A stretch of 64,000 nucleotides of DNA from Planctomycetota bacterium (GCA_028289345.1 JANQQL010000005.1:291012-355011), one strand, 5' to 3'. Positions 2,972 through 38,140 are shown, counted from the stretch's first letter. Notes: generated by a model from the sequence alone, not told the origin. Numbers and translations: made by a program.

Positions 2972-3264
2972 AGCTCCGCTGCCCTGGTTTCCGGCTTGCC
3001 ACCGGGAAATCCCTTCCCCCTCAGAATCCGCGGTAGGAAAAAGACCTGCGTTCCGTCGGGTTGCGCCACCCAGGCTTCAGGGACGGACCGGAGGACCCCG
3101 ATACCTTTCAACGGACCCGAAACGGGGCTCGTCGTGGGGTACGAGCAGTTCCGGGGGGCCATTGGGATTGGGGAAGGGCCACGGTGCGTCCGTTGCAGCC
3201 CGCACAAAAACCAAAGCACGGGGAACGCGCCTCTGGGTTCTCCGTGAGTCTGCGCGTCAAGGCG

Positions 3265-4821: not shown

Positions 4822-4964
4822 GTCGGGTGTCCGAAAGATCCTTGCCACGTTGGCTCGCCCCTTCGCCGTTCCATCAAGAGGCCGAGTTGTAACCGCGGCG
4901 GCCCCGCAACGACATTCCTCCCATTCGTGGTCATTGCCGCTGGTTCCACGACCGGCGCTCGAAG

Positions 4965-5747: not shown

Positions 5748-5905
5748 TTCTCGTCCCCTGAGAACGCCCGCGGATCGGAGAGCCCTTCCCCGTTCCGCGG
5801 GTTATGCGACGGGTCTCCATGAAGTCCGGACCTCGAGTGTTGGACACTCGCAGACCGCGGAAGAAGACTCTCGGCGCTCTTTCGCAGGCCGCTGAAAATG
5901 GCCTG

Positions 5906-6451
5906 CTAGCGAACCATGCTGCGCAAATCCTCCGCAGGAGCGACGATTTGCTCAGGGGTGCCCGGGTCCACGACCAAGACCTCGGCTTGAGGATCTCCGA
6001 GAACCGCAATCAGACAATCTTCCACGGTCAGCACGACAAAAGTGGATCCGCGAGGGACGCGACTGGAGTCCGTGTGGGCCACGATGCTGCGCAGCTTCTT
6101 GACCCCCATTCGAACCGTGCCGTAGGAATAGGTGTGGTTGCCATCGTTCTCGACGGCTCCCGTCTCTCCCTGAAGGCGGGACAGCACTTTGGCGGTCAGC
6201 CCTTCATTGCTGCGAATGCGATCCACCAGGACATAGAGCTGCTTCCGCGGCCCCAAGGAGCGAAGCGCGGATCGACAGTCGACCACCGCGGGGCTCTCCG
6301 GTGGAGCAACGGTTTCCTGCTGCCCCAACGCATGGTCCAGGAAGCGAGGCACCCCGCTGGTGAGGACCCAATACCCCAGGCCGAGCGCGACCAGCGAAGC
6401 CACGGTTCCTTTGGCCGACATGACCTGGATCCTCCACGGGACGAGAGGCAC
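5906..6451 (-). CDS. hypothetical membrane-anchored protein (probable start at MSAKG, 6421)
   Basis: N-terminal TM-like segment VASLVALGLGYWVLTS; non-Arg-biased composition, unlike the overlapping + strand ORF; lies downstream of ugd on the same strand. Confidence 0.4.
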   Translation of the reverse strand: MPLVPWRIQVMSAKGTVASLVALGLGYWVLTSGVPRFLDHALGQQETVAPPESPAVVDCRSALRSLGPRKQLYVLVDRIRSNEGLTAKVLSRLQGETGAVENDGNHTYSYGTVRMGVKKLRSIVAHTDSSRVPRGSTFVVLTVEDCLIAVLGDPQAEVLVVDPGTPEQIVAPAEDLRSMVR

Positions 6452-7909: not shown

Positions 7910-8456
7910 GCGACTTCCGTCCTTCCAGGGGCTTGGCGGCCCAGCAAGAGTCTTCGCCTCCCCAGGGGAGGCCACCACGTTGATGTCGGGAAAAAGGCCC
8001 CGAGAGGCTTAGCAGGCCGTTGAAAAAGTCTTCCGGCGGCGCCGTCAGTATCGAGGCCACCGACTCGCCTGCGGCCCGACTCCTCGACCCAAACGAAAAT
8101 CCCCCGGACGGTCACCCGAGGCCTCCTTTGACCGCCTGCGGACAGGCCGTTCCAAGAAGTCCTTCGGCTCAGGATCGGACGTTCTGGCCGATCTCGCCAC
8201 GGCTTTCCCGACAGCTTTCTCCGGGAGGCAGCGGACCTTCGCCGGCAAGACACCGCCAGCGAGGGGGAGCGAACCGCGATGTTCGGACACTCCCCGGAGA
8301 GGGGGACTGCGGCTTTATAGGAGCTGCCAGCCAGCGATTCCACTCCCGGTCGGCGGGCTCTCCTGCCCAGCCGCCGATTGCCGAAGAAAAGGGGATGTCC
8401 GGCTGCCGGGATACGATGCGCCGGACACCCCATTCTCGGCCCAAGGAGACCTGGTC

Positions 8457-9122
8457 ATGGCACGAGCGCTTGGTTCGCTTTCCTGGTTTGCCCCGTCGTC
8501 CCTCGCGGTTACTGCGTTGCTGGCCCCCGGATGCGCCTCGGCACCGCCAGAACCGGAACCGCAACCAGCCGCCACCATCGATCCACGAACGGAGCACGAA
8601 CTCGAGGTGACACGTGCTCTGGTCCAGAAGGCAGAAATGGAAGCCCGCAGCTTCGACGTGGAAGCGTCCCAGCGGGTGAGCCAAGCCAAAGCCAAGCTCG
8701 ACATGGCCAAACGCGAATTGAACGACTTCCTCGAACGCGCAGCCCCCCATCGGCTCGCCGAAGCACGACTTCGGTTGCAGGAAGCCAAAGACAGCGCTCA
8801 GGAAGCCGCCGAGGAACTGGAACAGATCGAGCTCATGTACGAGGGTCAGGATCTCGACGATCGGACCGCCGAGTTTGTCGTCCAACGCGGCCGACGGCAC
8901 GCCGAACGTCAGGCCGAGTGGCTGAAACTCGAAGAGCAGGCGCTCGTGTCCCTCGAACGCCACGAGCTGCCCCTCGACAAGATGAGCCTCGAGCTCGCGA
9001 TTCAAGAAGCCGAGTCCGAGTTTGCTGCGGCACAACGGGAACGGGAAATCGGCCAGTTGGAAAAGAAGATCGCGGTCTTAGAAGCCGAGGGAGAACTCGC
9101 GGAGCTCGGAGCGGCGAAATGA
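8457..9122 (+). CDS. coiled-coil lipoprotein, hypothetical
   Basis: Lipobox-like LLAPGCAS after a hydrophobic leader; the remainder is a long charged heptad-rich helix. Its stop overlaps the next gene start (ATGA at 9119-9122). Confidence 0.6.
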   Translation: MARALGSLSWFAPSSLAVTALLAPGCASAPPEPEPQPAATIDPRTEHELEVTRALVQKAEMEARSFDVEASQRVSQAKAKLDMAKRELNDFLERAAPHRLAEARLRLQEAKDSAQEAAEELEQIELMYEGQDLDDRTAEFVVQRGRRHAERQAEWLKLEEQALVSLERHELPLDKMSLELAIQEAESEFAAAQREREIGQLEKKIAVLEAEGELAELGAAK

Positions 9123-10270
9123 ACCGGGCGTGGGGCGCGATCCTGGTTGTCGCCTTCTGCGGCTCGCTCGGTTCCGTGTCAGTGGCTGCACCGGCCGAAG
9201 CCGATCCCGTGCGCACCGCGATGCAACGGGGCGTGAGCTACTTGCTCGAATCCCAGAACTCGGACGGCTCCTGGGGCGGGTTCCGGAACTCGACCTTCAC
9301 CAGCGGTTTCGCCAACCCGGCGACCTATCACTGCTGGCAGGTGGGAACCACGGCACTGGTGGCCCAGACGCTGATGAAGTGGGGAACCGGACACTCCGCA
9401 GACCATGCCTTGGACCGGGGACTTCACTACTTGGTGAATCACTCTCGATTGGTACGGCCCGCCGAGTGGGATGTCGACAACAACTGGGGCTTGCTGTACG
9501 GCTTGAACACCTTGGCCCTGGCGATGCAGGATCGACGCTACGCCGGTTCGTCCAAGTACGCGACCTTGCAGCGGGCCGCGCAAGACATGGTGTACCAGTT
9601 GCAACGCTACCAGTCGCCTCGCGGGGGCTGGGGCTACTACGCGTCCGCCCAAGCAGGATGGCGGCCTGACTGGGCCACCTCCTTCACGACCGCGGTGGGC
9701 GTCATCGCCCTGGTCCAGGCCAAGAAAGCCGGCTTGGAAGTGGACGAGAAAATGTTCGTCGCGGCCGTGCGTGCCGTCGAAAGCAGCCGACTCCCCAATG
9801 GGGCCTACGAATACGATGTGCGGGCCGTCCCTCGCCATCTGTCCGGAGAGTCCATCAATCAGGTGAAGGGCTCCCTGGGCCGAGTCCAAATTTGCAACTA
9901 TGCCCTGCTCCTCGCCAAAGGAAGGCTCGCCGAAGGAGTCCTGGCAACCGGCATGGAACAGTTCTTTCAGCACCACAAGTTCCTGGCCGTGGCACGCAAC
10001 AAGCCGATCCCCCACGAAGCCTACTACGGCAACGCGGCGTACTTCTATCTGTTCGGGCACTACTACGCGTCGCTGGCCCTGTCCGAGCTGCCGTTCGAGG
10101 AACGGCGTCGATGGACTTCCCGGCTGCAGGAGGCAGTGCTCGTGTGTCAGCAGTCCGACGGGTCGATGTGGGACTTCTGGCTCGCGAGCAACACCAAGCC
10201 CTACGGCACGGCGTTCGGAGTTCTCGCCCTAGGAAACACGTTGGCGCCGGCTTCCCCGGCGGCGGAATGA
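9119..10270 (+). CDS. secreted prenyltransferase/squalene-oxidase repeat protein (terpene cyclase-like alpha/alpha toroid)
   Basis: Signal peptide MNRAWGAILVVAFCGSLGSVSVAAP. Repeated xDGSWGG / GGWGYY motifs (QNSDGSWGGF, SPRGGWGYYA, QQSDGSMWDF) typical of SQHop-cyclase / prenyltransferase repeats. The 630-aa track ORF 8378..10270 is a read-through of two genes. Confidence 0.7.
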   Translation: MNRAWGAILVVAFCGSLGSVSVAAPAEADPVRTAMQRGVSYLLESQNSDGSWGGFRNSTFTSGFANPATYHCWQVGTTALVAQTLMKWGTGHSADHALDRGLHYLVNHSRLVRPAEWDVDNNWGLLYGLNTLALAMQDRRYAGSSKYATLQRAAQDMVYQLQRYQSPRGGWGYYASAQAGWRPDWATSFTTAVGVIALVQAKKAGLEVDEKMFVAAVRAVESSRLPNGAYEYDVRAVPRHLSGESINQVKGSLGRVQICNYALLLAKGRLAEGVLATGMEQFFQHHKFLAVARNKPIPHEAYYGNAAYFYLFGHYYASLALSELPFEERRRWTSRLQEAVLVCQQSDGSMWDFWLASNTKPYGTAFGVLALGNTLAPASPAAE

Positions 10271-17766: not shown

Positions 17767-19215
17767 TCAATCGGATCCGGATGCCTCCGCGGCGGACGAG
17801 TTCGACTTCTTCCGAGTGCGAATCCATCGAGTCAAGCCGTACTTCTTGACCCAGTAGCGCACTTGGTCGCGATGGATGCCGAGCATGCTGGCAGCACCGC
17901 TCTTGTTGCCGGCGCACTTCACCAAAGCCTGATCCAGAAGGTCCTTGATCAGGTCTTCGAGAATCAAACCCTGATCGGGAATGGTCAGCAGGTGTTCCCC
18001 CGAACCAGCTTGGGAGACTCGGGGGGCTCCGCGAATCTCGCGCGGCAGATCTCCCACCCCCAGCCGCTCGTTCCTGGCCAAGAGGACCGCTCGTTCGACG
18101 CAGTTGCGCAGCTCGCGAACATTGCCAGGCCAGTCGTATCGGCCCAGTAATGTCATCGCTTCGGCGTCGAACCCACGGCTCACTTTGCGCAACTCGGTGG
18201 CAAAGTACTCGGTGAAGTGGGAGACCAAATCACGCACGTCCTCGCGTCGCTCACGCAATGGCGGGATCTCGATCGGGATCACGTTCAACCGGTAGTAAAG
18301 GTCGCTGCGGAACGTGCCTTCCTCAATGGCCTTGGAAAGATCGCGGTTGGTCGCGGCGATGACGCGCACGTCCACTTGAATCTCCCGCAGTCCACCAACC
18401 CGACGAAACGTCTTCGATTCCAGGAACCGCAATAGCTTGCCCTGCAAGCTTTGTGGCATGTCCCCGATCTCGTCGAGAAAGATGGTGCCTCCCTGCGCTT
18501 CCTCAAATAACCCACGCTTGGCTTGTTTGGCGTCGGTGAACGCTCCTTTTTCGTGACCGAACAGCTCGCTTTCCAGCAACGCTTCCGGGAGCGCCGTGCA
18601 GGTGATATTGAGGAACGGGGCGTCGGTCTCTGGACTCGCAAAGTGAATTGCGCGCGCCACCAAGTCTTTGCCGGTCCCGCTCTCGCCCCGGATCAGAATG
18701 GTCTGGGCACCACTTCGGGACACCCGCTCCAGGAAGTCGCGGAGCTCGTTCATGGCCGGACTGCCACCGATGAGGTTGTCGATGCCGGAGCTGGCTCGGT
18801 CCTTGGCGCGAACCCGGGCCATTTGAGAGCGCAACGACACGTTCTCCAGGACTCGATCGGCGAGCAGCACCATCTCGTCCAGGTCGAACGGTTTGATCAG
18901 ATAGTCGGCAGCGCCGGCCTTCATGGCCCGAACGGCGTCTTCGATCGAAGCAAACGCCGTCATCATGATGACCGCCGCCGGGGACTGGTTCTTTCGGAGT
19001 TCCTCGAGAAGGGCCAGCCCCGTTCCATCCCCCAACCGATGGTCGAGAAGGATCAGCGCGAAGTCTGTTTCCGCGATGCGCTTGCGAGCGACCCCCACCC
19101 CATCGGCGGTGGTGACGCGAACGCCCTCTTCCGCGAATCGCTCCTGCAAAGCGCTTCGGATCGACAGCTCGTCGTCGACGATCAGGACCGGGCGACCTTT
19201 CAGGTGCTTGCTCAT
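17767..19215 (-). CDS. sigma-54-dependent Fis-family response regulator (REC + AAA+ sigma54 activator + HTH)
   Basis: REC LIVDDELSIRSALQERF...LILLDHRLGDGTGL. Walker A GESGTGKDLVARAIH. GAFTDA; ESELFGHEKGAFT region. C-terminal Fis-type HTH (AASMLGIHRDQVRYWVKKYG). Confidence 0.9.
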   Translation of the reverse strand: MSKHLKGRPVLIVDDELSIRSALQERFAEEGVRVTTADGVGVARKRIAETDFALILLDHRLGDGTGLALLEELRKNQSPAAVIMMTAFASIEDAVRAMKAGAADYLIKPFDLDEMVLLADRVLENVSLRSQMARVRAKDRASSGIDNLIGGSPAMNELRDFLERVSRSGAQTILIRGESGTGKDLVARAIHFASPETDAPFLNITCTALPEALLESELFGHEKGAFTDAKQAKRGLFEEAQGGTIFLDEIGDMPQSLQGKLLRFLESKTFRRVGGLREIQVDVRVIAATNRDLSKAIEEGTFRSDLYYRLNVIPIEIPPLRERREDVRDLVSHFTEYFATELRKVSRGFDAEAMTLLGRYDWPGNVRELRNCVERAVLLARNERLGVGDLPREIRGAPRVSQAGSGEHLLTIPDQGLILEDLIKDLLDQALVKCAGNKSGAASMLGIHRDQVRYWVKKYGLTRWIRTRKKSNSSAAEASGSD

Positions 19216-19299: not shown

Positions 19300-19498
19300 C
19301 CAGCCGGCAGACCGGTGCTCAACCCGGCGCTTCCTGATGAAAAGCAAGTGCCGATCCCGGACGTCTCGCCCACGCAAATTCCTGGCGGATTTCTTCGGAA
19401 ACTTGGCCGCCGCCGGAAAGACAGGAGCAGATGTCAGCACCGGTGCCTGATTCGGTCACACGCTCCCTCTCTCTTCTTCTCCTTTCGAGGATTCGACC

Positions 19499-20740
19499 AT
19501 GCGCCCCTGGACCTCCGTCTCCCTGGCCCTGACCCTCCTTGCCATCGCCCCTGAGAGCTGGGGACAACTCAGCATCGACAACCGTTGCAAGGCGTATCGC
19601 GGTCACAACTCGATCGAGTTCATCGCCCCGATGCCCACGGAAGAGGTGCCGGTGTTCCATGGGCCCATGCCCGCTGCCTGGCACGTCATTCTGGAAATGG
19701 CACTCGAGCAAGACGTCGTGATGCCGACTCGGATCTTCGAAGGCCAGTACCTTCCGTCCCCGGGCATCAGCGTTGCAGTTCCCACCGACCTGAATGGCAA
19801 CGGAACTCTCGGCGACCGCCACCCGGCATTTCCCGACTTGGTTCTGTCAATGGATGACGACCTGATGGTCGCTGGCGTGGTCCTGCCAGGGGGAACGAAC
19901 CTGGCCAGCTTTGTCGAGCTGATCGGCAGCGAGATCGAGCACGGTGGCGAACAAAGCACCACGGTTTCCTGGATCGTCGACGCCGGCTTCACCATCATCG
20001 ACACCAACGGAGACGGCGCCACGGTTTTGTTTGCAGCCGTCGGAAATGCAAGGGACACGGTCACGGTCACCCACGGCTTTGACCCGGTGTACCAACCTTG
20101 CAGCCTTCCAAGCACTCCGACCACGACCCTGTTCACCGCCGACTGGATCAGCACCATTGACCGGGACGTGCTGACCTCCGACGGGCGAGAGGCTTTCTTC
20201 GTCGGCTACGAGGTCCGCATTCCCTGCTACTTCGATTCGAGCACGACGCCCCCCACTCCGATCCCCTTGGATCCGATTCCCGGGCCGGGTTTTGGGGGGA
20301 TGGTCGTCACCGGAAACTTTCCCCTGGTGCCGGGTCCGGGCCCCCACCCGTCGTGGCCCACGGTCTACCTCACGTTCAGTGACGACTACTTCGACGTGGC
20401 CACGGGTTCCGGGGTCGGCGGCGGCATCGTCACGGGGGGAACCTGCGCAACGATCTATGGGGTCACGGGGCCGAACCTGGCCTTCGCCTTCGAGCAGGCC
20501 AGCGTTTCCGCGTGGTACGGCGTCGATGGGGTGCCGAACCTGGCCCCGGGAACCGTGGCGGATGATCAGCTCATCTACCGGTTCACCATGATCGGCGACG
20601 GCATGATCATCGATTCCGACATCCTGCCCCGCGAAATGATGATCACGGCGACGGTGGAGACCGAGTGCAATCTGTTCTCGATCACCAACACCCGGGTCAA
20701 GCACAAGCGCAAGATCCAAACTCCGAATCCCAATCCCTGA
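19499..20740 (+). CDS. secreted hypothetical protein (Gly/Pro/Thr-rich, no recognised domain)
   Basis: Signal peptide MRPWTSVSLALTLLAIAPESWGQ; 43 nt upstream of the ECF sigma gene on the same strand. Confidence 0.6.
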   Translation: MRPWTSVSLALTLLAIAPESWGQLSIDNRCKAYRGHNSIEFIAPMPTEEVPVFHGPMPAAWHVILEMALEQDVVMPTRIFEGQYLPSPGISVAVPTDLNGNGTLGDRHPAFPDLVLSMDDDLMVAGVVLPGGTNLASFVELIGSEIEHGGEQSTTVSWIVDAGFTIIDTNGDGATVLFAAVGNARDTVTVTHGFDPVYQPCSLPSTPTTTLFTADWISTIDRDVLTSDGREAFFVGYEVRIPCYFDSSTTPPTPIPLDPIPGPGFGGMVVTGNFPLVPGPGPHPSWPTVYLTFSDDYFDVATGSGVGGGIVTGGTCATIYGVTGPNLAFAFEQASVSAWYGVDGVPNLAPGTVADDQLIYRFTMIGDGMIIDSDILPREMMITATVETECNLFSITNTRVKHKRKIQTPNPNP

Positions 20741-20782
20741 TCCGAGCGAAGCACCCCCGGGGGATTGAGCTATTGACGCTCC

Positions 20783-21277
20783 ATGACCCTGGACTGGCAA
20801 TCGTTCTTGAAGCGCTACGGCCCCCTGGCTCGCAACATGGCTCGGGGACTGGGCTGCCGGGAGGAGGATGCCGACGATCTGATCCAGGAGGCGTGTGCCA
20901 GTTTGTGGCGCGTGCTCGAGGAGACGCCCTCCCGGATCGAGGGGGAGAGTCACATGCGCAACTACTTTTTGAAAGCCGTCAGGAACCTCTCCCTCCGCAT
21001 TCGGCGTCGCCCGACACCCGCCAACATGGACGATCTTGCGGCCCCCTCGCCCCCGACCCACGACGAACCTCCCCCGTGGGAATCCATGGCCCAAGCCATC
21101 CAACGACTCTCCGCCAAGGAGCAGGACCTGCTCCGACGCCGCTACAGCCGCAGCCAAACCTTCGCCGAGATCGAACGAGAACTCGGCATCCCCGTGTCCA
21201 CCTTGCATTCCCGCCAAGAGCGCATCCTTTCGAAACTTCGTCGAGCGCTGAATCGATGTCAGGAGGCGGACCCGTGA
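20783..21277 (+). CDS. ECF (sigma-70 family, group IV) RNA polymerase sigma factor
   Basis: Region 2 (DADDLIQEACASLWR) and region 4 HTH (QTFAEIERELGIPVSTLHSRQERILSKLRRAL). Confidence 0.85.
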   Translation: MTLDWQSFLKRYGPLARNMARGLGCREEDADDLIQEACASLWRVLEETPSRIEGESHMRNYFLKAVRNLSLRIRRRPTPANMDDLAAPSPPTHDEPPPWESMAQAIQRLSAKEQDLLRRRYSRSQTFAEIERELGIPVSTLHSRQERILSKLRRALNRCQEADP

Positions 21278-21978
21278 ACACCCACTTGGAACGGGACTCT
21301 CTATCGCGCCTCGCCGCGGGGGAACTCGATGCCGAAGAGTCGATGATCGCTCTGAAGCACGTGGAAACGTGCTCCGAGTGTGCCCGAGAACTCGACTTCT
21401 TGGCAGACCTGGTGGCAGCAGTCGATGACCAGTCTCAGTCCGGGACCTCGGCCATCGAGGCCAGGGAACCGACGACACACTCCCGAATGCTGGTCCCGGC
21501 GTTGGCGCTGTTCGTGGTGGTCATCGCGGCTCGGCTGGTCTTGAGAATTCCCGAACCCGTGCTGCCCTCGGTGCACCCCGAGGCGCCGGCCTACTACAGA
21601 GTCGCCCTCCTGGCCGACGACGATTCGCCGAAGGCTCGACTCGATCGAGCCATGACGCCGTATCGAGAAGCAGATTTTGTGACCGCCGTGAAGACATTGA
21701 CGGAATTCTTGGTCCAAGAGCCAGGACACGCACTGGCGCGTTTCTACCGCGGCGTTTGTCACCAGCAATTGCACGACTACAGCTCAGCCCGACGGGATTT
21801 CTTGGCAGCTCAGGAAACCAGCGAGGGATTTCTCCAACGCCACGCCCGATGGCGTCTCGCCCAGGTGGCGATTCAACAAGACGATCCCGATCGGGCTCGA
21901 GAATTGTTGGGGCAACTCGTTCAAGAAGGTCGAGAATTCTCTCTGAATGCGGAGCAGCTTCTTCAAGACCTCCCGTGA
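21274..21978 (+). CDS. anti-sigma factor, ZAS-type (HxxxCxxC) with one TM helix and an extracytoplasmic TPR-like domain
   Basis: GTG 21274 overlaps the sigma stop (GTGA). Motif KHVETCSECAREL; TM MLVPALALFVVVIAARLVL; C-terminal helical repeat region. An alternative start at the internal ATG (MIALKH...) is possible. Confidence 0.65.
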   Translation: MNTHLERDSLSRLAAGELDAEESMIALKHVETCSECARELDFLADLVAAVDDQSQSGTSAIEAREPTTHSRMLVPALALFVVVIAARLVLRIPEPVLPSVHPEAPAYYRVALLADDDSPKARLDRAMTPYREADFVTAVKTLTEFLVQEPGHALARFYRGVCHQQLHDYSSARRDFLAAQETSEGFLQRHARWRLAQVAIQQDDPDRARELLGQLVQEGREFSLNAEQLLQDLP

Positions 21979-24965
21979 TGGACCCAATCGGCCTCGGCTC
22001 CTTCCTTGTCATTGCGCTGCAGACTCCCGCGGACGCTCTCGCGGCGGTCTCCGTCGAGGAGATGATCCGACAGCGCTCTTGCGACTCTTTGCAACGTTGG
22101 GCCGAGAATCGCCCTTGGGATGTGGCGGATCTGTGCGCCAGCCGGGTACGCGGAATTCTCCAAGCGGCCGCTGACCGAGACTCCTTCGTCGAAGATGCAT
22201 TTCGCGAGCAGGCCTGGTTCCTGATCGACTGCTTGACCGAAGCCCCGGCCCCCGAATGGCTGGCTCTGACCCTGGAATGGGACGACGATCAGCTCCGCGA
22301 GGTGCATGAACTTGGTCGCCAACTTCCCGGCTTGGACCACCAGACACTCGCCGGGTGGCAGGAACGGGCGGAGTCCTTGAACGCACTGCCGCTATTCGAG
22401 TACCGACTGAGTCGGTTGGCCAACCGACTGTTCCAAGAAGGACACCGGTCTCTCGCTGACGAACTGGCCGAACAACTGCTGTTCGTCGCGGAAGACGTCG
22501 AAAGCGGATTGACCCTCGCGTGGAGTTTGCATTGGCTGGCCCGGGTCTCCTGGCGACGCGGTGATTTCGAGGAGTCCCAAGAACGATTTCAACGCTCGCG
22601 CTCGCTGTGGCAGGCTCTCGACGACGACCGGGAGGCCTGCTTGGTGTTGCAAGAGCTGTCGTCACTGCAGTTGGTCACCGGGGACCTGACAGGAGCGCTG
22701 CAGTCGTCCCAGGATGCGCTGCAGGAGGCCCATCGCTTGACCGATTGGGACACCCTTCAGCGAGCGGTGGAGATTCAAGCCTCCATCCTGCAGGAGCTGG
22801 GGGAACCCGCTGCGGCTTATCGAGCGCTGCTGTCTCTCGACGAGGTGGGCCAAGGTCGGGAGTCCGAGCCAGAAACACGAGCGCGCCGAGAGCTGATGCG
22901 CGGCACGATTCTCTCCGACCTGGGTCAAGAGACCTTGGCGGAACAAGCGCTGCAACGGGCGGCCGCGGCCGCGGCTCATCCCTCCGCGGTGAACGCCGCT
23001 CCCGAACTCGCCTGGGAAGTTCAGCTTTCGCTCGGCCTCCTCCTCGGAGATCTGGGACACACCGAGGCGGCTCTCTCTACCCTGCAAACCGCCGAGAAAG
23101 GGTTCCTGGCCGGAGAAGACCCCCGGGGCGCCGCATGGGCCTGGAAGAACCGCGGCTGGGTCCTGCAGCGAGCGGGGCGATTCGAGGAAGCCATGGAGTG
23201 GTTCGCCCGAGCCACGGATTACGGCAAAGAGCACTCGCTGCCCTTCCTGGAAGGCTGGTGTGCCTTGGGCCAGGCCGAATGCGCCGTGGATCTTGGCGAG
23301 CTTCCAGAGTCCTTTGGCCCGTGGCTGCAAGTCGCGCAGGAACGCGGCCGGCAACTCGATGACAATCATTTGCGATGGCGCACGTCGGCGGCATTCGCCG
23401 AAGGCTGCCTTCTCCGAGGGGATCTCGAGGAAGCTCTGATCCATCTCCGCTTGGCGGTGAAGCGTCTCGAATCGCTGCGACAGAACCTCGAAGTTCCGAC
23501 CCTCATGACCCACTTTTTGCGACATCGCGCCGATCCCTACCGACGGGCCGCGTCGGTGGCCGCAAGACTCGGCTCCCACCAGGAGTCGTTTCGCTACGCG
23601 GACTTGCTGTGCGGAAGAATCCTCGCGGAAAGCCGGTCCCGGCAGGAATCTCCGGTCTCATTCTCGAAAGCTGTCTCCCAACTGAGACGCCAAGAGAAGG
23701 AGCTCGTGGCCAAGCGCCGCGACCCGGCGACGGACCAAGGGGCGCTCGACTCCGAACTGGTCACGATCCGACATGCTCTCCGAGAAGCTCTGGTCCGCGA
23801 CGAACTCCAAGCCCCTCGCCAATTCGCGCTCCGAGGACTCTCGGTCCATTCGGTGGACTGCTCCCGACTCCAAGAACGGATTGGTGAACTCCCTTTCGAA
23901 ACACTCATCGAATACTTGGTTCTTGATGACAAGACTCTGGTCTACGAAGTCCGCGAGGACGACTTTCGCGTCCACACCTTGGACATTGGTCGAACCGAGC
24001 TGAAACGGCTGGTGGCGCGCTTGCGAGAACCGATCGAGAAATTGCGTGCCGGACAGATTGACCTGGCCCACTTGGGTTTCGATGGGCAGGCTGCTCGCGA
24101 ACTCTACGAACGCCTGGTCGGTCCCTTGCGCGAACGATGGGGCTCTCGCGTGGCCATCGTTCCTGACGGTCCCCTATGGTCCGTTCCCTTCGATGCACTC
24201 GTCACAGCGGGAAAGCCAGGCCCCCTCGAAATCCGTCGACCATTCTCCCATTTGCAGCCCCTGCAGTTCCTGGCCGAAGAACTCGTGATCTCCATCGTTC
24301 CTGCGGCCGCCGTGCTGGCTTGGCCACCGTCAACCCCGCCTGTTCCGCCACAGACGGTGCCCCCTTCCACGGCGAGACGAAACACGATCGGGTATTCGTC
24401 CAGCCACCGGCAGCCGACACTGCCGCCCCTTGTCCCATCGACGGAGGCTTCTTTCTCGCCACCAGTCCTTCACTTCGCACCGGCGACGAGGCAGGACATT
24501 CTTGGCACCGCCGGTCAGGCTCGTGTCCTGCACTTCTTCGCTCACGGTTTCATCGATCGAGACGTGCCACAGAACTCTCACCTCCTGTTTAGGGATGAAC
24601 AAGGTCGACCGGACCCACTTCGGTCCTGGGAGATCGAGCGACTGCCACTGACGGCGGACTTGACGATCCTGTCCGCTTGTCACAGCGGCGAAGGGGCTTA
24701 TCTGCCGGGAGAAGGCCTCTTGGGATTGACTCGAAGTTTTCTCCTGGCGGGATCTCGGAGAGTGGTTGCAAGCCTGTGGGCCGTGGAAGAAGAGTCGACG
24801 CTGCGTCTCCTGGAACTCTTCCAAGAGGCCCTCGCCAGGGGCATGGAACCTGGGCAAGCACTTCAGCGCGCCAAGCTCGAGCTGCGTCGAACCATGGATC
24901 CGCGGGGCTTCTCTCTGGCTCACCCCTATTTCTGGGCGGGCTGGGTGCTGCACACCGCCGGTTGA
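21978..24965 (+). CDS. TPR-repeat / CHAT-domain (caspase-like protease) protein
   Basis: ATG 21978 overlaps the anti-sigma stop (TGATG). Long N-terminal TPR-like helical array; C-terminal CHAT signature with His (ARVLHFFAHGFID, about 24521-24550) and Cys (LTILSACHSGEGAY, about 24671-24696). The 5' part of the 1069-aa track ORF is out of context, since it overlaps the anti-sigma gene. Confidence 0.85.
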   Translation: MDPIGLGSFLVIALQTPADALAAVSVEEMIRQRSCDSLQRWAENRPWDVADLCASRVRGILQAAADRDSFVEDAFREQAWFLIDCLTEAPAPEWLALTLEWDDDQLREVHELGRQLPGLDHQTLAGWQERAESLNALPLFEYRLSRLANRLFQEGHRSLADELAEQLLFVAEDVESGLTLAWSLHWLARVSWRRGDFEESQERFQRSRSLWQALDDDREACLVLQELSSLQLVTGDLTGALQSSQDALQEAHRLTDWDTLQRAVEIQASILQELGEPAAAYRALLSLDEVGQGRESEPETRARRELMRGTILSDLGQETLAEQALQRAAAAAAHPSAVNAAPELAWEVQLSLGLLLGDLGHTEAALSTLQTAEKGFLAGEDPRGAAWAWKNRGWVLQRAGRFEEAMEWFARATDYGKEHSLPFLEGWCALGQAECAVDLGELPESFGPWLQVAQERGRQLDDNHLRWRTSAAFAEGCLLRGDLEEALIHLRLAVKRLESLRQNLEVPTLMTHFLRHRADPYRRAASVAARLGSHQESFRYADLLCGRILAESRSRQESPVSFSKAVSQLRRQEKELVAKRRDPATDQGALDSELVTIRHALREALVRDELQAPRQFALRGLSVHSVDCSRLQERIGELPFETLIEYLVLDDKTLVYEVREDDFRVHTLDIGRTELKRLVARLREPIEKLRAGQIDLAHLGFDGQAARELYERLVGPLRERWGSRVAIVPDGPLWSVPFDALVTAGKPGPLEIRRPFSHLQPLQFLAEELVISIVPAAAVLAWPPSTPPVPPQTVPPSTARRNTIGYSSSHRQPTLPPLVPSTEASFSPPVLHFAPATRQDILGTAGQARVLHFFAHGFIDRDVPQNSHLLFRDEQGRPDPLRSWEIERLPLTADLTILSACHSGEGAYLPGEGLLGLTRSFLLAGSRRVVASLWAVEEESTLRLLELFQEALARGMEPGQALQRAKLELRRTMDPRGFSLAHPYFWAGWVLHTAG

Positions 24966-30524: not shown

Positions 30525-32531
30525 ATGAAAGACGTCTTCGCGCGATTTGCCACCGCGGTCACCGCCGCAGGACTTCAACTCGGAATCGGACTTCTCCTCC
30601 TCTTCCCGATCCTGCATGAGTCAGCCACGACGAGCTTTGACGTGCTCCTCACCGGAGCCGCTCTCCTGGTCACTGGGATTGGCTCACGCTGGAATCCGAG
30701 CCGTCGAACCGCCATTCGTGTTTTGGCGGGAACCCTGCTTGCCTTCGTGTCGGTCCAGCTCTTGGTGGTGACCAACCACACCTGCGAAATGGCCAACGAC
30801 TTCAGCATCCAGTGGCGGACGGCGGTGACCTTCGCCACCAAGGGGGCGAGTCTTCCCAACCTTCTCCAGGAACAACGCGCCCTGCCCTTCTACTACCCCC
30901 TCGCTTCCATTTTCGGAGGCAGCGACGCGGTCTTCCAGACAGCCAACGTCGTCATGACCACTCTGACCTGGCTGATGACCGTCTGGATTGCCCGGCGCCT
31001 GTTTGGTTGGAGCGGCGCGGCAAAGACGGGGATCCTTCTGACTTTCGCTTTCGAGCCCTACGTGGCCAACAACATTGCCACTCACGATCTTCTGGGCGCT
31101 TGGGGAATCCTCCTGTTCCTTCTCCTACTCACTGAGTTCGATCATGCGAAGAGCAAAGGAACAATCTCTCTTGCGAAGACCCTCGTTCTGGCCATCTCCG
31201 CCGCGCTTGTGGTGTCTTGGACCCATTGGCAACGAGGAACAGGCCTCTACGGAATCGGTATCTTGGCCCTGTACGGCCTCGGGGGAGTCATTCCCGTCTC
31301 GCCCCACCGCCGCTCGCGAATCGTGTTCGCCAGCCTTTCACTCTTTTTCGTTTTCGTCACTCTGGGAGCCATCGATCGGGCCGGATGGAACGCACCCAGA
31401 ACCAACACGAAGACTCTGTTGTCGTTCAGCGGCTACGACGGAGGAGGACGCTTCCGCGACAAGATCCTCGCGTCGCGGGCGATCAACGCGCTGAGACCAG
31501 AGGATGCCGAACGGCTCAGCAAGGTCCTTTTTCTCGAGACGCTCCGCACGGGACCGGTCGACAAGTACGAGAACTACCTGGGCGCCGCCACCCATTTGCT
31601 TCGTTTCGGCAAAGAAAGCAACTGGTACCTGACCACCGAGGACTCAGGGCGACACCTTTCGGTCCGTTCGCTTCGTACTGTTTATGACGGTGTCCGATCG
31701 GTGATGACACCGACTCTTTGGGCACTGCTGATCCTTGCCTCTGTCCTCGTGCTGAAGAATCCGAGGAATGCTCTCGAGGGTCGATGGATGCCCTACTGGG
31801 TGGTGGCACTCCACTTGTTTCTTCTGGGCGCTTTGGCAGAGAACCAACCTCGGTACTCCTACTTCGTGGTCTTCCTCGCCGCGATCTATGTTGGTTGTCC
31901 CTGGATGGCAGAACTGTTCTCGAAAAAGGCGGACATTCCGGACTCGCCACGAAGCGACCTGCGAATCGCCACGCCTCGCTGGCTCCTCGCCTCCCTCACC
32001 GTGGTCCTGCTCGTTTTCGTCGGCCATCGGACCGCGAGCGCCCTCCACGACGTGTCCCTGGTGAACTTTCACCGGCTGACCATCTCCACGGATCCTTCGA
32101 TGCCACGGGATCTGGACGCCGTCGAACGTTTCGGAGTGGTGGTTCGTCAGAACTCCTTGAGAGTTCGACACCCGTCGGACACGAGCCCAGAGCAGCCCCT
32201 CGTCTTCTCCGGAGAGGTGCTCGCGAAATCGGACCACCACTCCCAACTGCGATTCCTTGTCGAAACCGGGCCGAGACGAAATCGTTTTGGCAAGCGGATG
32301 GATTTGAAGGGAGAACCGTTTCAGAACTCACCCGGCCGATCGATGCAGCTAGTTCTCGATGGTCAGGTGCGCAAGACCATCGATCTCTCCGGCGAGTTTT
32401 CCAACGACCGGATCGTCGTGAACGACGTCACCCCCGGCAGCCACGAGTTCGAACTCCGTTTCCAGTTTGGAACGATGACCAGCGATCCGGACAGCGTGGA
32501 AACCGTGATTTCCTTCCTGGGGATCTACTGA
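30525..32531 (+). CDS. large polytopic membrane protein (at least 10 predicted TM helices) with C-terminal soluble domain; possible GT-C-type glycosyltransferase
   Basis: Successive hydrophobic segments across the first about 450 aa; no confident family call. Confidence 0.55.
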   Translation: MKDVFARFATAVTAAGLQLGIGLLLLFPILHESATTSFDVLLTGAALLVTGIGSRWNPSRRTAIRVLAGTLLAFVSVQLLVVTNHTCEMANDFSIQWRTAVTFATKGASLPNLLQEQRALPFYYPLASIFGGSDAVFQTANVVMTTLTWLMTVWIARRLFGWSGAAKTGILLTFAFEPYVANNIATHDLLGAWGILLFLLLLTEFDHAKSKGTISLAKTLVLAISAALVVSWTHWQRGTGLYGIGILALYGLGGVIPVSPHRRSRIVFASLSLFFVFVTLGAIDRAGWNAPRTNTKTLLSFSGYDGGGRFRDKILASRAINALRPEDAERLSKVLFLETLRTGPVDKYENYLGAATHLLRFGKESNWYLTTEDSGRHLSVRSLRTVYDGVRSVMTPTLWALLILASVLVLKNPRNALEGRWMPYWVVALHLFLLGALAENQPRYSYFVVFLAAIYVGCPWMAELFSKKADIPDSPRSDLRIATPRWLLASLTVVLLVFVGHRTASALHDVSLVNFHRLTISTDPSMPRDLDAVERFGVVVRQNSLRVRHPSDTSPEQPLVFSGEVLAKSDHHSQLRFLVETGPRRNRFGKRMDLKGEPFQNSPGRSMQLVLDGQVRKTIDLSGEFSNDRIVVNDVTPGSHEFELRFQFGTMTSDPDSVETVISFLGIY

Positions 32532-34921: not shown

Positions 34922-37900
34922 ATGGATTGGATAGCCAAGCAGATTCAATCAGTCCGAGACGGGGCGAGTACCAGACTCGATCTATGGGACGAAGAGCTGA
35001 CAGAGCTGCCGAATGAAGTACTGTCTCTCCACAAGCTCGAATATCTCAGGGTAAGGTCGGGCAAGCTTCGCACGATTCCCTCTGAGCTAGCAAAGCTCCC
35101 CAATCTCAAGAGTGTCGACCTATTCGGCAACCCCATCGAGTCTCTGGTCGATCTCCCGGGGTTACACCTGGATGTCGAGCCCTATCTCTCCTGCGTTTCG
35201 AGCATCTCTCCAGAAAATGTGCACGGGCTGTGGCTCGGCCCGTCTCCTTTCATTAGTTACAGTCTTCTCGAGAAGCTTGCCAACCTCCGACGACTCGACC
35301 TAAGCCGGCGGGATCGGTTCGCGTACAAGACCGGCCTCAACAAACCCGGCCCTTTGCGAAAGTTGTTCGCTTGGCTGAAATCCGCGAACGAGATCCTCAG
35401 CCGCCTCGAAACTTTGGAGATCGCGTACGCGAAACTCGATCGTCTTCCCCTAGTCATCCGGCAATTAAGCCAACTAAAGAAGCTCAACTTAGACGGCAAT
35501 CCTCTTCACCGGTTTCCAAACATCTCGAGGCTTCGAGAACTGTTCGCCTTGCGTCTCTCCGACACCGGGATCAGAGAGGTGCCGGACAAGCTGTGCCGTC
35601 TCACGGAACTTCGAAATCTTGACCTCTCCTTCAACGACCTAGTCAAACTTCCAAACGACATCGGTCGGCTAACCAAACTCTCGAGTCTGGTCCTCGAATC
35701 CAACAACCTCGAGAGAATCCCCAGCTCAGTTCGGAAGCTCAAGAAACTCACATTCCTGGATCTTTCCGACAACCCACTAGCGGAATTTCCGCGGGAGATA
35801 TTTTCTCTCAGTAACCTTCGCGCCTTGAACATGACATGCGGTCTTGACGACTCGACCTGCCAACGTGGCACTTATCCCTTCGTGCGGACCCGACCGTCTC
35901 AAGCGTCGTTTCAGGAGATCCCACCCCGCATTCTCGAGCTCAAGCAACTCGAAGAGCTGCGTGTTTCCGGACAGCCGATTGAGACGCCACCCCCAGAGGT
36001 CGTCGACCGAGGCCTTGAGGCGATCAAGGACTATTGGAGGCAGCGGGGGGACTCGGGGACCGACTATCTTTGCGAGGCCAAACTGCTGGTCGTCGGCGAA
36101 GGGGGGGCTGGCAAGACCTCCCTCGCCAAGAAAGTCAAAGCTCCGGAAACCAACCTCGACGCAGAAGAGGAGTCGACGGAAGGAATTGAAGTTCTCGAGT
36201 GGACATTCCCCACGGCGCTAAGGGTCACAGAGAACGGCCAACTCAAAACCGTGGAGCGCGACTTCCGGGTCCACATCTGGGATTTCGGGGGTCAGGAGAT
36301 CTACCACGCGACCCATCAGTTTTTCCTGACCCGTCGATCTCTCTACGCCCTTGTCGCCGACAACCGCAAGGAAGACACCGACTTCAACTACTGGCTCAAC
36401 ATTGTCGAGCTATTGAGTGACGGAAGCCCGTTGGTCATCGTCAAGAACGAACGCCAAGACCGACAAAGAGACATTGATGAGGGATCTCTTCATGGCCGGT
36501 TCCGCAATCTCACCCAAGTCGTGGCGACGAACCTGAAAACCAACCGGGGGCTCGACGGCGTCCTCCAACGGTTCCGCGAAGAACTCGAGAAGCTGTCCCA
36601 CGTCGGCACTCCCCTTCCGGCAACGTGGAAGCGGGTGCGAGACGCTCTCGAGAAAGACCCCCGCAACTACATCGAACTCGACGAGTATCTCAGGATCTGC
36701 GAGGTTCATGGGTTCACCCGTCTGGACGACAAGCTTCAGTTGAGTGGATACCTCCACGACCTAGGCATCTTCCTCCACTTCCAAGACGATCCCCTGCTGA
36801 AACGAATCGTCATTCTTCAGCCAAAATGGGGAACGGATGCCGTCTATCGCGTCCTTGACAACGACACGGTCCTTCGAAGACACGGCAGGGTGAGCCGCAA
36901 CGACCTAGAGAACATCTGGGACGAAGAAGCTTACGCATCCATGCGCGACGAGCTGCTGCAACTCATGATGCGATTTCAGCTCCTTTACCCACTTCCCTCG
37001 AAGAACGAGTTCATCGCCCCTCAACTGTTAGGATCCGCACAGCCTGAGTACCCATGGCCGGGGACGGGCAACCTCGTCATTCGCTACCGCTACGAGTTCA
37101 TGCCGAAAGGACTCCTGACGCGGCTCATCGTGGCCGTCCACGACATGATTCAAAGCGAAGGTTTCGTCTGGAAGACGGGAGTCCTCGTCGAGCGAGATGG
37201 GACACGCGCGGAGATCGTCGAGCACTACTCCCAGCGATGCATCGTGGTTCGAATTCACGGGGCTTTTCAACAAGAGCTCGCTGCGGTGATTGACCGAGAG
37301 CTCGAACAGATCCACCGTTCCTTTCCTCCACTCAAGTACGACACTCTCGTCCCCTGCGGATGCACCTTGTGCTCTTCGAGCCCAGACCCCCACCCACACT
37401 CCTACAAGACGCTACGAAAGTTTGCTTGGGATGGACAACCGATCCAGTGCCCCATTAGCTACGAGATGATTGAACCGCGGTCGATCCTCGACCACAAATT
37501 CGTGCGCAACCGCAAGCTGGACATAATCCTCGACACGATCGAAGGCACACTCCGACCGCAACAAGCAGAGCCGGCCGCGGCTGAGTCCCGCGAGGTGCTC
37601 CTGTCCTATGCCTGGAACGGAGGATGTGACACCTTGATCGAAAAACTCGAAAAGTCGTTCCGAGAGCGCGGAATCGAGCTGATCCGCGACCGAAGCGAGA
37701 TGACCTACAAGGACTCGATCCGAGGTTTCATGAAGCGCATCGGCACAGGAAAATGTGTTGTCATCGTCATCAGCAAAGAGTACCTGGAGTCCCCCAACTG
37801 CATGTTCGAACTTACCGAGATCGCCAAACACGGCGAGTTTCGTGATCGAGTGTTTCCCATCGTCCTCTCGGACGCGAAGCTGTTCCATCCGGTCAGTCGG

Positions 37901-38140
37901 TTGAAGTACATCAAGCATTGGGAGTTGCAGATCGCGGACCTTGACGAGGCAATGAAGGAAGTCGAGCAGACAAACTTGGACTCCATTCAGGAAGAGATCA
38001 ATCATTATCGGGAAATCCGGACGACCATTGCCGACCTCACAAATGTGCTTCGCGACATGAATAGCCTCACGACAGAGGATCACATCGACACCGAGTTCGA
38101 AGCACTTCTCAATGCGGTCGACTCGCGGTTACGAACCTGA
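34922..38140 (+). CDS. ROCO-type protein with C-terminal TIR domain: LRR - Roc (Ras-like GTPase) - COR - TIR
   Basis: At least 12 LRRs (LxxLxxLxLxxNxL, e.g. LTELRNLDLSFNDLVKLPNDIGRLTKLSSLVLESNNLERIPSSV). Roc G1 LLVVGEGGAGKTSLAKKV (about 36091-36123) and G3 WDFGGQEIY. COR (LSGYLHDLGIFLHFQDDPLLKRIVILQPKWGTDAVYRVLD). C-terminal TIR (VLLSYAWNGG...KCVVIVISKEYLESPNCMFELTEIAK; Glu codons at 37808-37810 and 37817-37819). GC about 43-55% versus about 65% in flanking regions. Confidence 0.85.
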   Translation: MDWIAKQIQSVRDGASTRLDLWDEELTELPNEVLSLHKLEYLRVRSGKLRTIPSELAKLPNLKSVDLFGNPIESLVDLPGLHLDVEPYLSCVSSISPENVHGLWLGPSPFISYSLLEKLANLRRLDLSRRDRFAYKTGLNKPGPLRKLFAWLKSANEILSRLETLEIAYAKLDRLPLVIRQLSQLKKLNLDGNPLHRFPNISRLRELFALRLSDTGIREVPDKLCRLTELRNLDLSFNDLVKLPNDIGRLTKLSSLVLESNNLERIPSSVRKLKKLTFLDLSDNPLAEFPREIFSLSNLRALNMTCGLDDSTCQRGTYPFVRTRPSQASFQEIPPRILELKQLEELRVSGQPIETPPPEVVDRGLEAIKDYWRQRGDSGTDYLCEAKLLVVGEGGAGKTSLAKKVKAPETNLDAEEESTEGIEVLEWTFPTALRVTENGQLKTVERDFRVHIWDFGGQEIYHATHQFFLTRRSLYALVADNRKEDTDFNYWLNIVELLSDGSPLVIVKNERQDRQRDIDEGSLHGRFRNLTQVVATNLKTNRGLDGVLQRFREELEKLSHVGTPLPATWKRVRDALEKDPRNYIELDEYLRICEVHGFTRLDDKLQLSGYLHDLGIFLHFQDDPLLKRIVILQPKWGTDAVYRVLDNDTVLRRHGRVSRNDLENIWDEEAYASMRDELLQLMMRFQLLYPLPSKNEFIAPQLLGSAQPEYPWPGTGNLVIRYRYEFMPKGLLTRLIVAVHDMIQSEGFVWKTGVLVERDGTRAEIVEHYSQRCIVVRIHGAFQQELAAVIDRELEQIHRSFPPLKYDTLVPCGCTLCSSSPDPHPHSYKTLRKFAWDGQPIQCPISYEMIEPRSILDHKFVRNRKLDIILDTIEGTLRPQQAEPAAAESREVLLSYAWNGGCDTLIEKLEKSFRERGIELIRDRSEMTYKDSIRGFMKRIGTGKCVVIVISKEYLESPNCMFELTEIAKHGEFRDRVFPIVLSDAKLFHPVSRLKYIKHWELQIADLDEAMKEVEQTNLDSIQEEINHYREIRTTIADLTNVLRDMNSLTTEDHIDTEFEALLNAVDSRLRT

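Follow-up and report, generated by a model that had tools for sequence, protein, structure and literature searches.

In the DdvS-DdvA system of Myxococcus xanthus, the anti-sigma factor DdvA combines a zinc-binding anti-sigma (ZAS) domain, a transmembrane (TM) helix and a periplasmic part made of tetratricopeptide repeats (TPR) and a CHAT protease domain in one chain (PMC6061681, PMC11506125; PDB 8ROT, 8RW5). DdvA deprived of its TPR-CHAT part becomes a substrate of RseP, self-cleavage in trans within the dimer has been proposed, but not proven, as the site-1 step, and fused DdvA-like homologs have been found only in Myxococcota and in one Comamonas (PMC11506125). In the craspase system, the TPR-CHAT protein Csx29 cleaves Csx30, which binds and inhibits a sigma factor resembling those of the extracytoplasmic function (ECF) type (PMC10028731). 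Further protease-sigma links are present in type III CRISPR systems, namely CalpL-CalpT-CalpS and SAVED-CHAT/PCaspase/PCc-sigma (as cited in bioRxiv 10.1101/2023.06.23.546230), and an association of caspases with ECF sigma factors and TPR proteins (DUF1822) has been noted in conflict systems (PMC8195603). Here we describe a cassette of four genes for a secreted protein (gene 1), an ECF sigma factor, an anti-sigma factor and a separate, putatively exported TPR-CHAT protease, which lies on a stretch of 64,000 nucleotides from a Planctomycetota bacterium (GCA_028289345.1, JANQQL010000005.1:291012-355011), this whole 64-kb stretch being referred to as the window. Full-text literature searches yielded no account of an anti-sigma factor with a split, exported TPR-CHAT partner, and CHAT is not mentioned in the main text of the ECF reclassification paper.

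The four genes of the cassette are the following:

19499-20740, + strand: gene 1, coding for a secreted all-beta protein of an unannotated family (413 aa)
20783-21277, + strand: ECF (group IV) sigma factor (164 aa)
21274-21978, + strand: single-pass anti-sigma factor (234 aa)
21978-24965, + strand: TPR-CHAT caspase-like protease, predicted to be exported (995 aa)

All four co-directional reading frames reported in the original prediction, which had been made from the DNA alone, are present, and an independent gene caller set the same boundaries on the identical public contig (Logan SRR20820731; locus L001, where coordinates equal those of the window minus 18977 and the genes lie at 522-1763, 1806-2300, 2297-3001 and 3001-5988). 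The TGA of the sigma gene at 21275-21277 overlaps the GTG of the anti-sigma gene at 21274 (GTGA), with an AGGAGG 7 nt 5' of the GTG, and the TGA of the anti-sigma gene at 21976-21978 overlaps the ATG of the CHAT gene at 21978 (TGATG). Both overlaps, and likewise the protein motifs HVETCSEC, FFAHG and SACHSG, are found exactly as they had been claimed. The gap between gene 1 and the sigma gene measures only about 40 nt, no sigma70-type promoter and no + strand terminator were found within the four-gene operon, and a scan of the window between 17 and 27 kb against Rfam gave no matches.

With respect to the conservation of this arrangement, which the original prediction had proposed to check in relatives, the same four-gene order was found, partially or completely, at 15 further loci at low sequence identity, most of them labelled as metagenome-assembled genomes (MAGs) of Planctomycetota. 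In all loci of sufficient length (L002-L010, L012-L014), hidden Markov models built from the window families recovered the four genes in the order gene 1, sigma, anti-sigma, CHAT, and two more loci with this order (L016, L017) were added via look-ups of the anti-sigma factor. A scan of species-representative genomes with the gene 1 profile yielded 11 loci, nine of them in Planctomycetota or Planctomycetaceae MAGs and two from a MAG labelled merely as 'bacterium'. The sigma and anti-sigma genes overlap by ATGA or GTGA in all 13 loci examined, and in ten of 11 the anti-sigma gene overlaps the CHAT gene or is at most 7 nt away from it, the respective gene calls overlapping by 4 nt in L016 and L017; this suggests stoichiometric co-production of the latter two proteins. 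Since an all-against-all comparison of the flanking reading frames showed that only the four cassette genes are common to the loci, the cassette forms a conserved unit. The four genes are thus a real, conserved and tightly coupled unit, and their arrangement recurs far beyond chance; the tight coupling that had been postulated for the window holds across the loci, in gene order as well as in the overlaps of start and stop codons.

Sequence conservation is unequal among the four members. Gene 1 is the best conserved, with 53-62% identity as compared to 34-41% for sigma and anti-sigma (three-locus alignment) and 33-36% for the CHAT protein. Between the window and its orthologs the two regulators together are 33-43% identical, the sigma factors 40-41%. 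The CHAT protein has few close relatives, and the best two (36% and 35% identity) both reside in the same four-gene order. In one locus (L004, 12510-15643) the CHAT gene is split into at least four overlapping reading frames, owing to either frameshifts in the assembly or decay of this copy.

The sigma factor is made up of the two regions characteristic of its class:

20798-21010, + strand: sigma2, residues ~6-76 (Sigma70_r2, E = 4e-8)
21083-21250, + strand: sigma4, residues ~101-156 (Sigma70_r4, E = 4.5e-8)

With its 164 aa and sigma2 and sigma4 only, it belongs to ECF group IV, and it matches TIGR02937 with 70.3 bits, the cut-off being 42.9. None of the NCBIfam subfamily and equivalog models reached its cut-off and hence named an ECF subfamily, the best being SigE-fam_strep with 52.9 against 141.6. 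The closest relatives of solved structure are SigL, RpoE of Rhodobacter sphaeroides and CnrH (E ~1e-4).

The anti-sigma factor is divided by a single TM helix:

21274-21423, + strand: N-terminal domain, residues 1-50, containing H4-x24-H29-x3-C33-x2-C36
21487-21543, + strand: TM helix, residues 72-90, the one strong hydrophobic segment (mean 19-residue hydropathy 2.65)
21544-21975, + strand: linker and TPR ectodomain, predicted to be periplasmic, residues 91-234 (Pfam TPR at residues 130-221)

Its HVETCSEC motif provides H29, C33 and C36, and H4 stands at the ZAS spacing of a fourth ligand, so that the ZAS motif H/C-x23-26-H-x3-C-x2-C is complete in the window; the match to zf-HC2 is weak (20.0 bits, under the cut-off of 22.2). 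However, the full set of zinc ligands is found in only four of 13 orthologs (the window, L002, L004 and L005), the other nine being devoid of HxxxCxxC and of any cysteine at those positions. By contrast, the ELDFLADL sequence, the TM segment and the TPR ectodomain are kept throughout the alignment of all 13. As judged from these sequences the zinc motif does not define this anti-sigma family, and its loss in nine of 13 orthologs argues against a redox-sensitive ZAS switch as the general input. The zinc/redox-type motif described in the original prediction is therefore genuine in the window, whereas its reading as a redox switch does not extend to the family. The family comprises 46 clusters, one of them a partial sequence of 142 aa and the others of 219-283 aa, none of which is fused to a CHAT domain. 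Directly before the TPR ectodomain, at residues 104-113 (21583-21612), lies a juxtamembrane motif P-x-[YFW]-[LV]-x-x-x-L-R, whose L-R is found in 12 of 12 orthologs, usually preceded by E, and reads L-L in the window copy; this segment is a candidate for docking or cleavage.

The TPR-CHAT protein carries N-terminal TPRs and a highly significant CHAT match (PF12770, E = 2e-45, 155.8 bits against a cut-off of 24, residues 705-991). A structure model computed with AlphaFold2 (AF2; pLDDT 82, pTM 0.80, with low confidence for the first 115 residues) outlines its organisation as follows:

21978-22037, + strand: signal-peptide-like N-terminus, residues 1-20 (from hydropathy)
22335-23837, + strand: TPR superhelix, residues ~120-620 (AF2 model)
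23895-24962, + strand: CHAT domain, residues ~640-995 (AF2 model)
24543-24545, + strand: His856 in FFAHG, predicted catalytic dyad residue
24678-24680, + strand: Cys901 in SACHSG, predicted catalytic dyad residue
residues 789-834, + strand: disordered Pro-rich loop next to the active site (AF2 model)

Searched with Foldseek against the PDB, the model retrieves Csx29 first (8eey_B, E = 2.6e-13), then DdvA (8rw5, 1.2e-11; 8rot_A, 4.5e-11) and then separase, all with a probability of 1.0 and with low TM-scores, the latter being expected because solenoids are flexible. His856 and Cys901 align with the catalytic HG and AC motifs of Csx29. A profile of the CHAT domain matched only Csx29-type proteins (E ~4e-4) and separase (0.05). 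The caspase-like His/Cys dyad noted in the original prediction is kept in eight of eight full-length orthologs, which removes the objection that these residues might not be conserved, and is invariant in an alignment of 15 sequences that includes distant relatives. The protein thus keeps an intact dyad and is predicted to be a protease.

A feature missed in the original prediction are the export signals on both gene 1 and the TPR-CHAT protein, which were called from N-terminal sequence and hydropathy. The first 23 or so residues of gene 1 (19499-19567, + strand) form a hydrophobic N-terminus and predicted signal peptide, and all 14 gene 1 copies begin with a Sec-type signal peptide. In ten CHAT orthologs as well as in the L002 copy as called, a hydrophobic N-terminus of 10-15 residues is followed by a polar segment, often QEP or AQ, and the N-termini of the L005, L008 and L013 proteins are textbook signal peptides. 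In the window, the hydrophobic region of the CHAT protein has a hydropathy of 2.51, as compared to 2.53 for gene 1 (mean over 11 residues). Since the sigma factor can be held only by a cytoplasmic anti-sigma domain, the TPR ectodomain on the other side of the TM helix would be periplasmic, and with export signals on gene 1 and the TPR-CHAT protein any proteolysis would take place in the periplasm as well. Gene 1, the TPR-CHAT protein and the anti-sigma ectodomain are accordingly predicted to meet outside the cytoplasm.

Upstream of gene 1, two elements are found at the position where a promoter of the operon would be expected:

19376-19393, + strand: A/T-containing element AAATTCC ... GGATTTC, a GAAwTCC-like box ~10-20 nt before the -35-like box
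19396-19420, + strand: bipartite promoter-like element made of CGGAAAC, a 12-nt G+C-rich spacer and GGAAAG, a candidate autoregulated ECF promoter

The pattern yCGGAAA-N12-14-GGAAR(G) with a G+C-rich spacer lies 37-103 nt before the ATG of gene 1 in all 13 cassette loci, occurring there a single time in each, and a GAAwTCC-like box stands 10-22 nt 5' of the CGGAAA box in most of them; apart from these elements, the 220-nt regions before gene 1 cannot be aligned between loci. Because the strict pattern is expected only about 1.8 times per 64 kb (both strands), or about 0.003 times per 220-nt upstream region, its position-specific recurrence is not due to chance. The first box resembles an ECF -35 (GGAAC/AAc). 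We infer that the element at 19396-19420 is the promoter of an autoregulated operon and is read by the sigma factor encoded in it. Of the two sites at which a search for an ECF-type promoter had been proposed, such an element is therefore found upstream of 19499 and none upstream of the sigma gene at 20783; a separate internal promoter was rejected, as there is no second copy of the motif and the preceding gap is so short. The element is also missing upstream of an orphan gene 1 copy that has neither sigma, anti-sigma nor CHAT gene beside it (L011).

Other interpretations of this upstream region were considered and discarded. In the window, an out-of-frame ATG just after the purine-rich second box might suggest a leader peptide encoded there, but in L003 the box and the ATG of gene 1 have no start codon between them. 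Control via sigma54 by the divergent NtrC-type activator gene (17767-19215) is not supported, as this activator is not conserved beside the cassette elsewhere, and the conserved element is by eye unlike GG-N10-GC. The sole other + strand match to the strict pattern in the window (4548-4574, CGGAAT...GGAAAG) lies within a long reading frame (3061-4821) and is probably a chance match, given the 1.8 expected. Directly before the gene 1 ATG, at 19459-19498 in the window and in the same 40 nt of L006, L008, L009, L010 and L012, there is a pyrimidine tract without an obvious Shine-Dalgarno sequence; leaders of this kind (at least 70% C/T) occur in six of 14 loci, the corresponding share among random 40-mers drawn from these loci being 1.2%.

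Gene 1 itself belongs to a compact family. Its relatives form 58 clusters, all unannotated and mostly of about 410-430 aa, with identities of 50-65% except for the copy of the window itself (100%), and at 50% identity there are only three full-length clusters among 1.84 billion representatives. The AF2 model (pLDDT 85, pTM 0.85) is all-beta, and a structure search with it found no meaningful neighbour beyond single Ig-like sandwiches. More remote relatives share only a subdomain of about 90 residues (residues ~80-170, 19736-20008), sometimes beside CHRD domains; this subdomain is acidic and resembles a calcium site (PTDLNGDGxLGDxHPAxP ... VDxNGD). The orphan second copy mentioned above is found at 7110-8342 of L011 (MAG JAUIEE010000151, the same MAG as that of L007), and near it lies a gene for a 672-aa ECF sigma factor with a long C-terminal extension holding a CarboxypepD_reg domain. 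Gene 1 is a highly conserved secreted family with neither annotation nor structural relative, and it offers a clear genetic handle.

Beyond the Planctomycetota cassette, six distant TPR-CHAT relatives were sampled, with 24-41% identity in local alignments and three of them with 25-27% over about 80% of the query; the sample is a small one, with a bias towards the query's relatives. Five of the six adjoin an ECF sigma factor and an anti-sigma factor, and three of these (L018, L020, L022) have the same order of ECF sigma, anti-sigma and TPR-CHAT, with a zf-HC2 match on the anti-sigma factor in L018 and L020. In L019, a sigma gene and a gene for a TM protein lie 2 kb from the CHAT gene, and only in the Streptomyces locus (L023) is there no sigma/anti-sigma pair beside it. 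The CHAT proteins of these distant loci have signal or lipobox N-termini, and gene 1 is absent from the distant trios. A more distant member of the anti-sigma family (L015) has a sigma gene, a zf-HC2/TPR anti-sigma gene and a gene for a TPR_12-rich protein cut by the contig end, likewise without gene 1. Taken together, this suggests a recurrent trio of ECF sigma factor, anti-sigma factor and exported TPR-CHAT protein beyond this clade. As for the surroundings of the trios, genes for CHAT-SIR2 and nSTAND-WD40 proteins follow in L018 (8393-13156), and in L020 (4328-4971, 8318-12417) a PhD/PIN toxin-antitoxin pair stands between anti-sigma and CHAT, accompanied by a second CHAT protein and a C25 peptidase, the latter being present in the ddvS-ddvA operon too.

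The cassette is best read as a self-contained extracytoplasmic signalling cassette. Within it we tentatively take the TPR-CHAT protein, with doubt slightly outweighing confidence, to be a dedicated periplasmic partner of the anti-sigma factor, acting in trans as sensor and site-1 protease and followed by release of the sigma factor and autoregulation. In such a scheme the TPR-CHAT protein would sit in the periplasm with the anti-sigma ectodomain, via TPR-TPR or TPR-linker contacts, until a cue from the envelope or from an invader, which might be sensed by way of gene 1, triggers it. The caspase-like site would then cut the juxtamembrane part or the ectodomain of the anti-sigma factor in trans as the site-1 step, an RseP-type site-2 protease and cytoplasmic proteases would remove the rest, and the freed sigma factor would transcribe its own operon from 19396-19420, thereby amplifying gene 1, sigma, anti-sigma and protease. 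Gene 1 might serve as a clade-specific co-sensor or as the main output.

Several observations weigh against this scheme. The contact between the two proteins, the substrate of the protease, the signal and the reading of the upstream element by this sigma factor are all inferred, and even for DdvA the self-cleavage by CHAT is still a hypothesis (PMC11506125). The profile of the CHAT domain does not find DdvA, so that the resemblance is an architectural one, and the second box of the upstream element (GGAAR) differs from the canonical ECF -10, cGT. The signal peptide of the CHAT protein in the window has an acidic n-region (MDP...). In the distant locus L021, the CHAT gene is convergent with the adjacent sigma/anti-sigma pair and hence not co-transcribed with it. 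The anti-sigma ectodomains of the distant loci have no TPR match in Pfam and are beta-rich by eye, in contrast to the TPR ectodomain of the Planctomycetota cassette; because of this difference a single shared mode of recognition is not evident. Co-transcription with the sigma gene fits equally well with the protease being a mere output.

The last point leads to an alternative that is possible, if rather unlikely, namely that the TPR ectodomain of the anti-sigma factor is itself the sensor, that generic proteases inactivate this factor, and that the TPR-CHAT protein and gene 1 are sigma-induced periplasmic effectors, e.g., for degrading or processing envelope proteins, foreign proteins or gene 1. 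It is common for ECF operons to include output genes of their own, all four genes would be driven by the sole conserved promoter-like element, located before gene 1, and gene 1 has the high conservation expected of an effector (53-62%). Furthermore, the anti-sigma ectodomains vary among the distant trios although the CHAT neighbour stays, and one CHAT gene is convergent, as described above. However, the overlap of anti-sigma stop and CHAT start in most loci suggests a fixed stoichiometry and not the production of a bulk effector, the link of CHAT with sigma and anti-sigma persists in the distant trios where gene 1 is absent, and the precedents of fused DdvA and of craspase both place the TPR-CHAT part upstream of sigma release. 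The two possibilities named in the original prediction, processing of the anti-sigma factor by the protease or the protease as a controlled output, remain the right pair of hypotheses, the first of them having a precedent (DdvA, PMC11506125; craspase, PMC10028731).

Less probable is a role of the TPR-CHAT protein as a shield or co-inhibitor, which would bind the anti-sigma ectodomain and protect it sterically from site-1 and site-2 proteases, comparable to the periplasmic domain of DdvA or to RseB on RseA, until the shield is lost upon a signal, whether through auto-proteolysis, dissociation or the cutting of gene 1, and not through a cut in the anti-sigma factor. The domain is protective in DdvA, which becomes a substrate of RseP once it is lost, translational coupling suggests a 1:1 complex, and the disordered Pro-rich loop predicted beside the active site could be a site of self-cleavage. 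As the dyad is strictly conserved, though, catalysis matters, and shield and trans-acting protease are hard to tell apart by computation.

Very unlikely, finally, is an immune or abortive-infection module with the protease as toxic anti-phage effector, in analogy to CRISPR- or CBASS-linked CHAT proteases: although the known CHAT-sigma links are all in defence contexts, two distant trios stand beside CHAT-SIR2, nSTAND-WD40, C25 peptidase and toxin-antitoxin genes, and the flanks of the cassette vary between genomes, PADLOC gave no match for gene 1, anti-sigma and CHAT and only weak, non-specific CARF-model matches for sigma (E = 3e-4 to 3e-3), the 64-kb window has no CRISPR array or tandem repeat, no defence genes directly flank the cassette in the window, L016 or L017, with a ROCO-TIR gene lying about 10 kb downstream in the window, and the protease is predicted to be exported and not cytoplasmic.

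As to the remainder of the window, the neighbours of the cassette code for a sigma54 activator, a sulfotransferase, DUF proteins and a histidine kinase. The ROCO-TIR gene (34922-38140, + strand) encodes a 1072-aa ROCO GTPase fused to TIR (LRR, Roc, COR-A, COR-B and C-terminal TIR) and lies in a stretch of lower GC content (0.57-0.58 as compared to ~0.61), for which reason it may be a horizontally acquired gene of the immunity type. Directly after it, in the same low-GC stretch, follows a gene for a non-specific endonuclease (Endonuclease_NS) fused to a lamin-tail domain (38148-39452, - strand). Three long reading frames, 41085-45005 (-), 30525-32531 (+) and 8378-10270 (+), of 1306, 668 and 630 aa, had no Pfam match at E <= 1e-5.

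Compared with known systems, the cassette shares with canonical regulated intramembrane proteolysis (sigmaE-RseA-RseB of Escherichia coli with DegS and then RseP; RsiW of Bacillus subtilis with PrsW) a single-pass anti-sigma factor predicted to hold an ECF sigma factor and, putatively, an autoregulated operon. There, a periplasmic site-1 cut, which a periplasmic accessory protein can modulate, precedes intramembrane cleavage at site 2, and the site-1 enzymes are serine proteases or metalloproteases encoded elsewhere; the site-1 enzyme proposed here, in contrast, would be a cysteine protease of the caspase fold whose gene lies in the operon itself, translationally coupled to that of the presumed substrate. 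A dedicated protease acting on a sigma/anti-sigma partner from the same locus is also a feature of the CalpL-CalpT-CalpS and SAVED-CHAT/PCaspase/PCc-sigma cascades named above, but those are cytoplasmic, activated by cyclic oligoadenylate and devoted to CRISPR immunity, and the cassette has no SAVED or CARF sensor.

Closer to the cassette is craspase (Cas7-11/gRAMP, Csx29, Csx30, Csx31, CASP-sigma), where a TPR-CHAT protein is likewise linked to an ECF-type sigma factor and its inhibitor, and where the sigma factor is freed from inhibition once its inhibitor has been cut (PMC10028731). Csx29 is the best match to the TPR-CHAT protein of the window by structure as well as by sequence profile. 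However, Csx29 is cytoplasmic and switched on by RNA-bound Cas7-11, whereas the protease of the window bears an export signal, and the inhibitor in the cassette is a classical membrane anti-sigma factor and not Csx30. The genomic context of Csx29 is lacking too: the 64-kb window contains neither cas genes nor a CRISPR array or repeats, in agreement with the original prediction that a type III-E system is absent. An identity as Csx29, or as another CRISPR or defence component, was accordingly rejected, the weak CARF-model match on the sigma factor being the only PADLOC result. The statement that TPR-CHAT proteins are otherwise known as Csx29-type partners was drawn too narrowly, since DdvA with its ZAS-fused TPR-CHAT part had already been described and Csx29 itself acts on the inhibitor of an ECF sigma factor.

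The likeness to DdvS-DdvA is in overall design. In both systems an ECF sigma factor is accompanied by a single-pass anti-sigma factor with an N-terminal (zinc) domain and by a large TPR-CHAT part with a His/Cys dyad; co-transcription of the two regulators, a periplasmic location of the TPR-CHAT part and autoregulation of the operon, as in DdvS-DdvA, are predicted for the cassette. The predicted fold of the TPR-CHAT protein matches that of DdvA over its whole length. DdvA-type proteins are further characterised by a CHAT domain without the three-helix active-site motif and by a dimeric, arrow-shaped assembly. Unlike in DdvA, the anti-sigma factor (234 aa) and the TPR-CHAT protein (995 aa) are encoded by separate genes at every locus, in two reading frames of different phase, with anti-sigma clusters free of CHAT domains. 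A frameshifted DdvA-like fusion was rejected, the genes being split in all loci, the anti-sigma factor uniformly short and the CHAT protein provided with a hydrophobic N-terminus of its own. Moreover, the cassette anti-sigma factor keeps its own small TPR ectodomain, and the operon is led by the additional conserved secreted gene 1. The phylum is Planctomycetota, there is no CBASS or CRISPR regulon, and the promoter-like element yCGGAAA-N12-14-GGAAR differs from the GTAA-N16-CGT of the DdvS promoters in M. xanthus. At the sequence level, neither phmmer nor profile searches, run with the CHAT protein or its CHAT domain and with each of the two regulators, revealed similarity to DdvA or DdvS (8ROT, 8RW5). 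The cassette may be viewed as a functional two-polypeptide analogue, and not as a close homolog, of DdvA, the one anti-sigma factor known to carry such a protease.

With somewhat greater reserve than for the scheme outlined above, it can be supposed that cassette and distant trios stand for a widespread and undescribed class of three-component ECF switches, in which a separate exported TPR-CHAT protein acts in trans in the periplasm as dedicated, signal-activated site-1 protease or sensor, and to which the Planctomycetota cassette adds gene 1, a new secreted family, as co-sensor or output. The split design would then be common, and DdvA a rare case of fusion. Should the link found in five of the six distant relatives prove to be genome-wide, proteases of the caspase fold would be a general class of ECF site-1 proteases alongside DegS, Prc and PrsW, and a role could be predicted for many 'CHAT domain-containing TPR proteins' that are so far unannotated. 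In DdvA, protease and presumed substrate are joined in one chain; the natural two-gene version separates enzyme from substrate, and trans-cleavage thereby becomes directly testable by means of purified proteins, mutants of the catalytic residues and a promoter reporter in a heterologous host.

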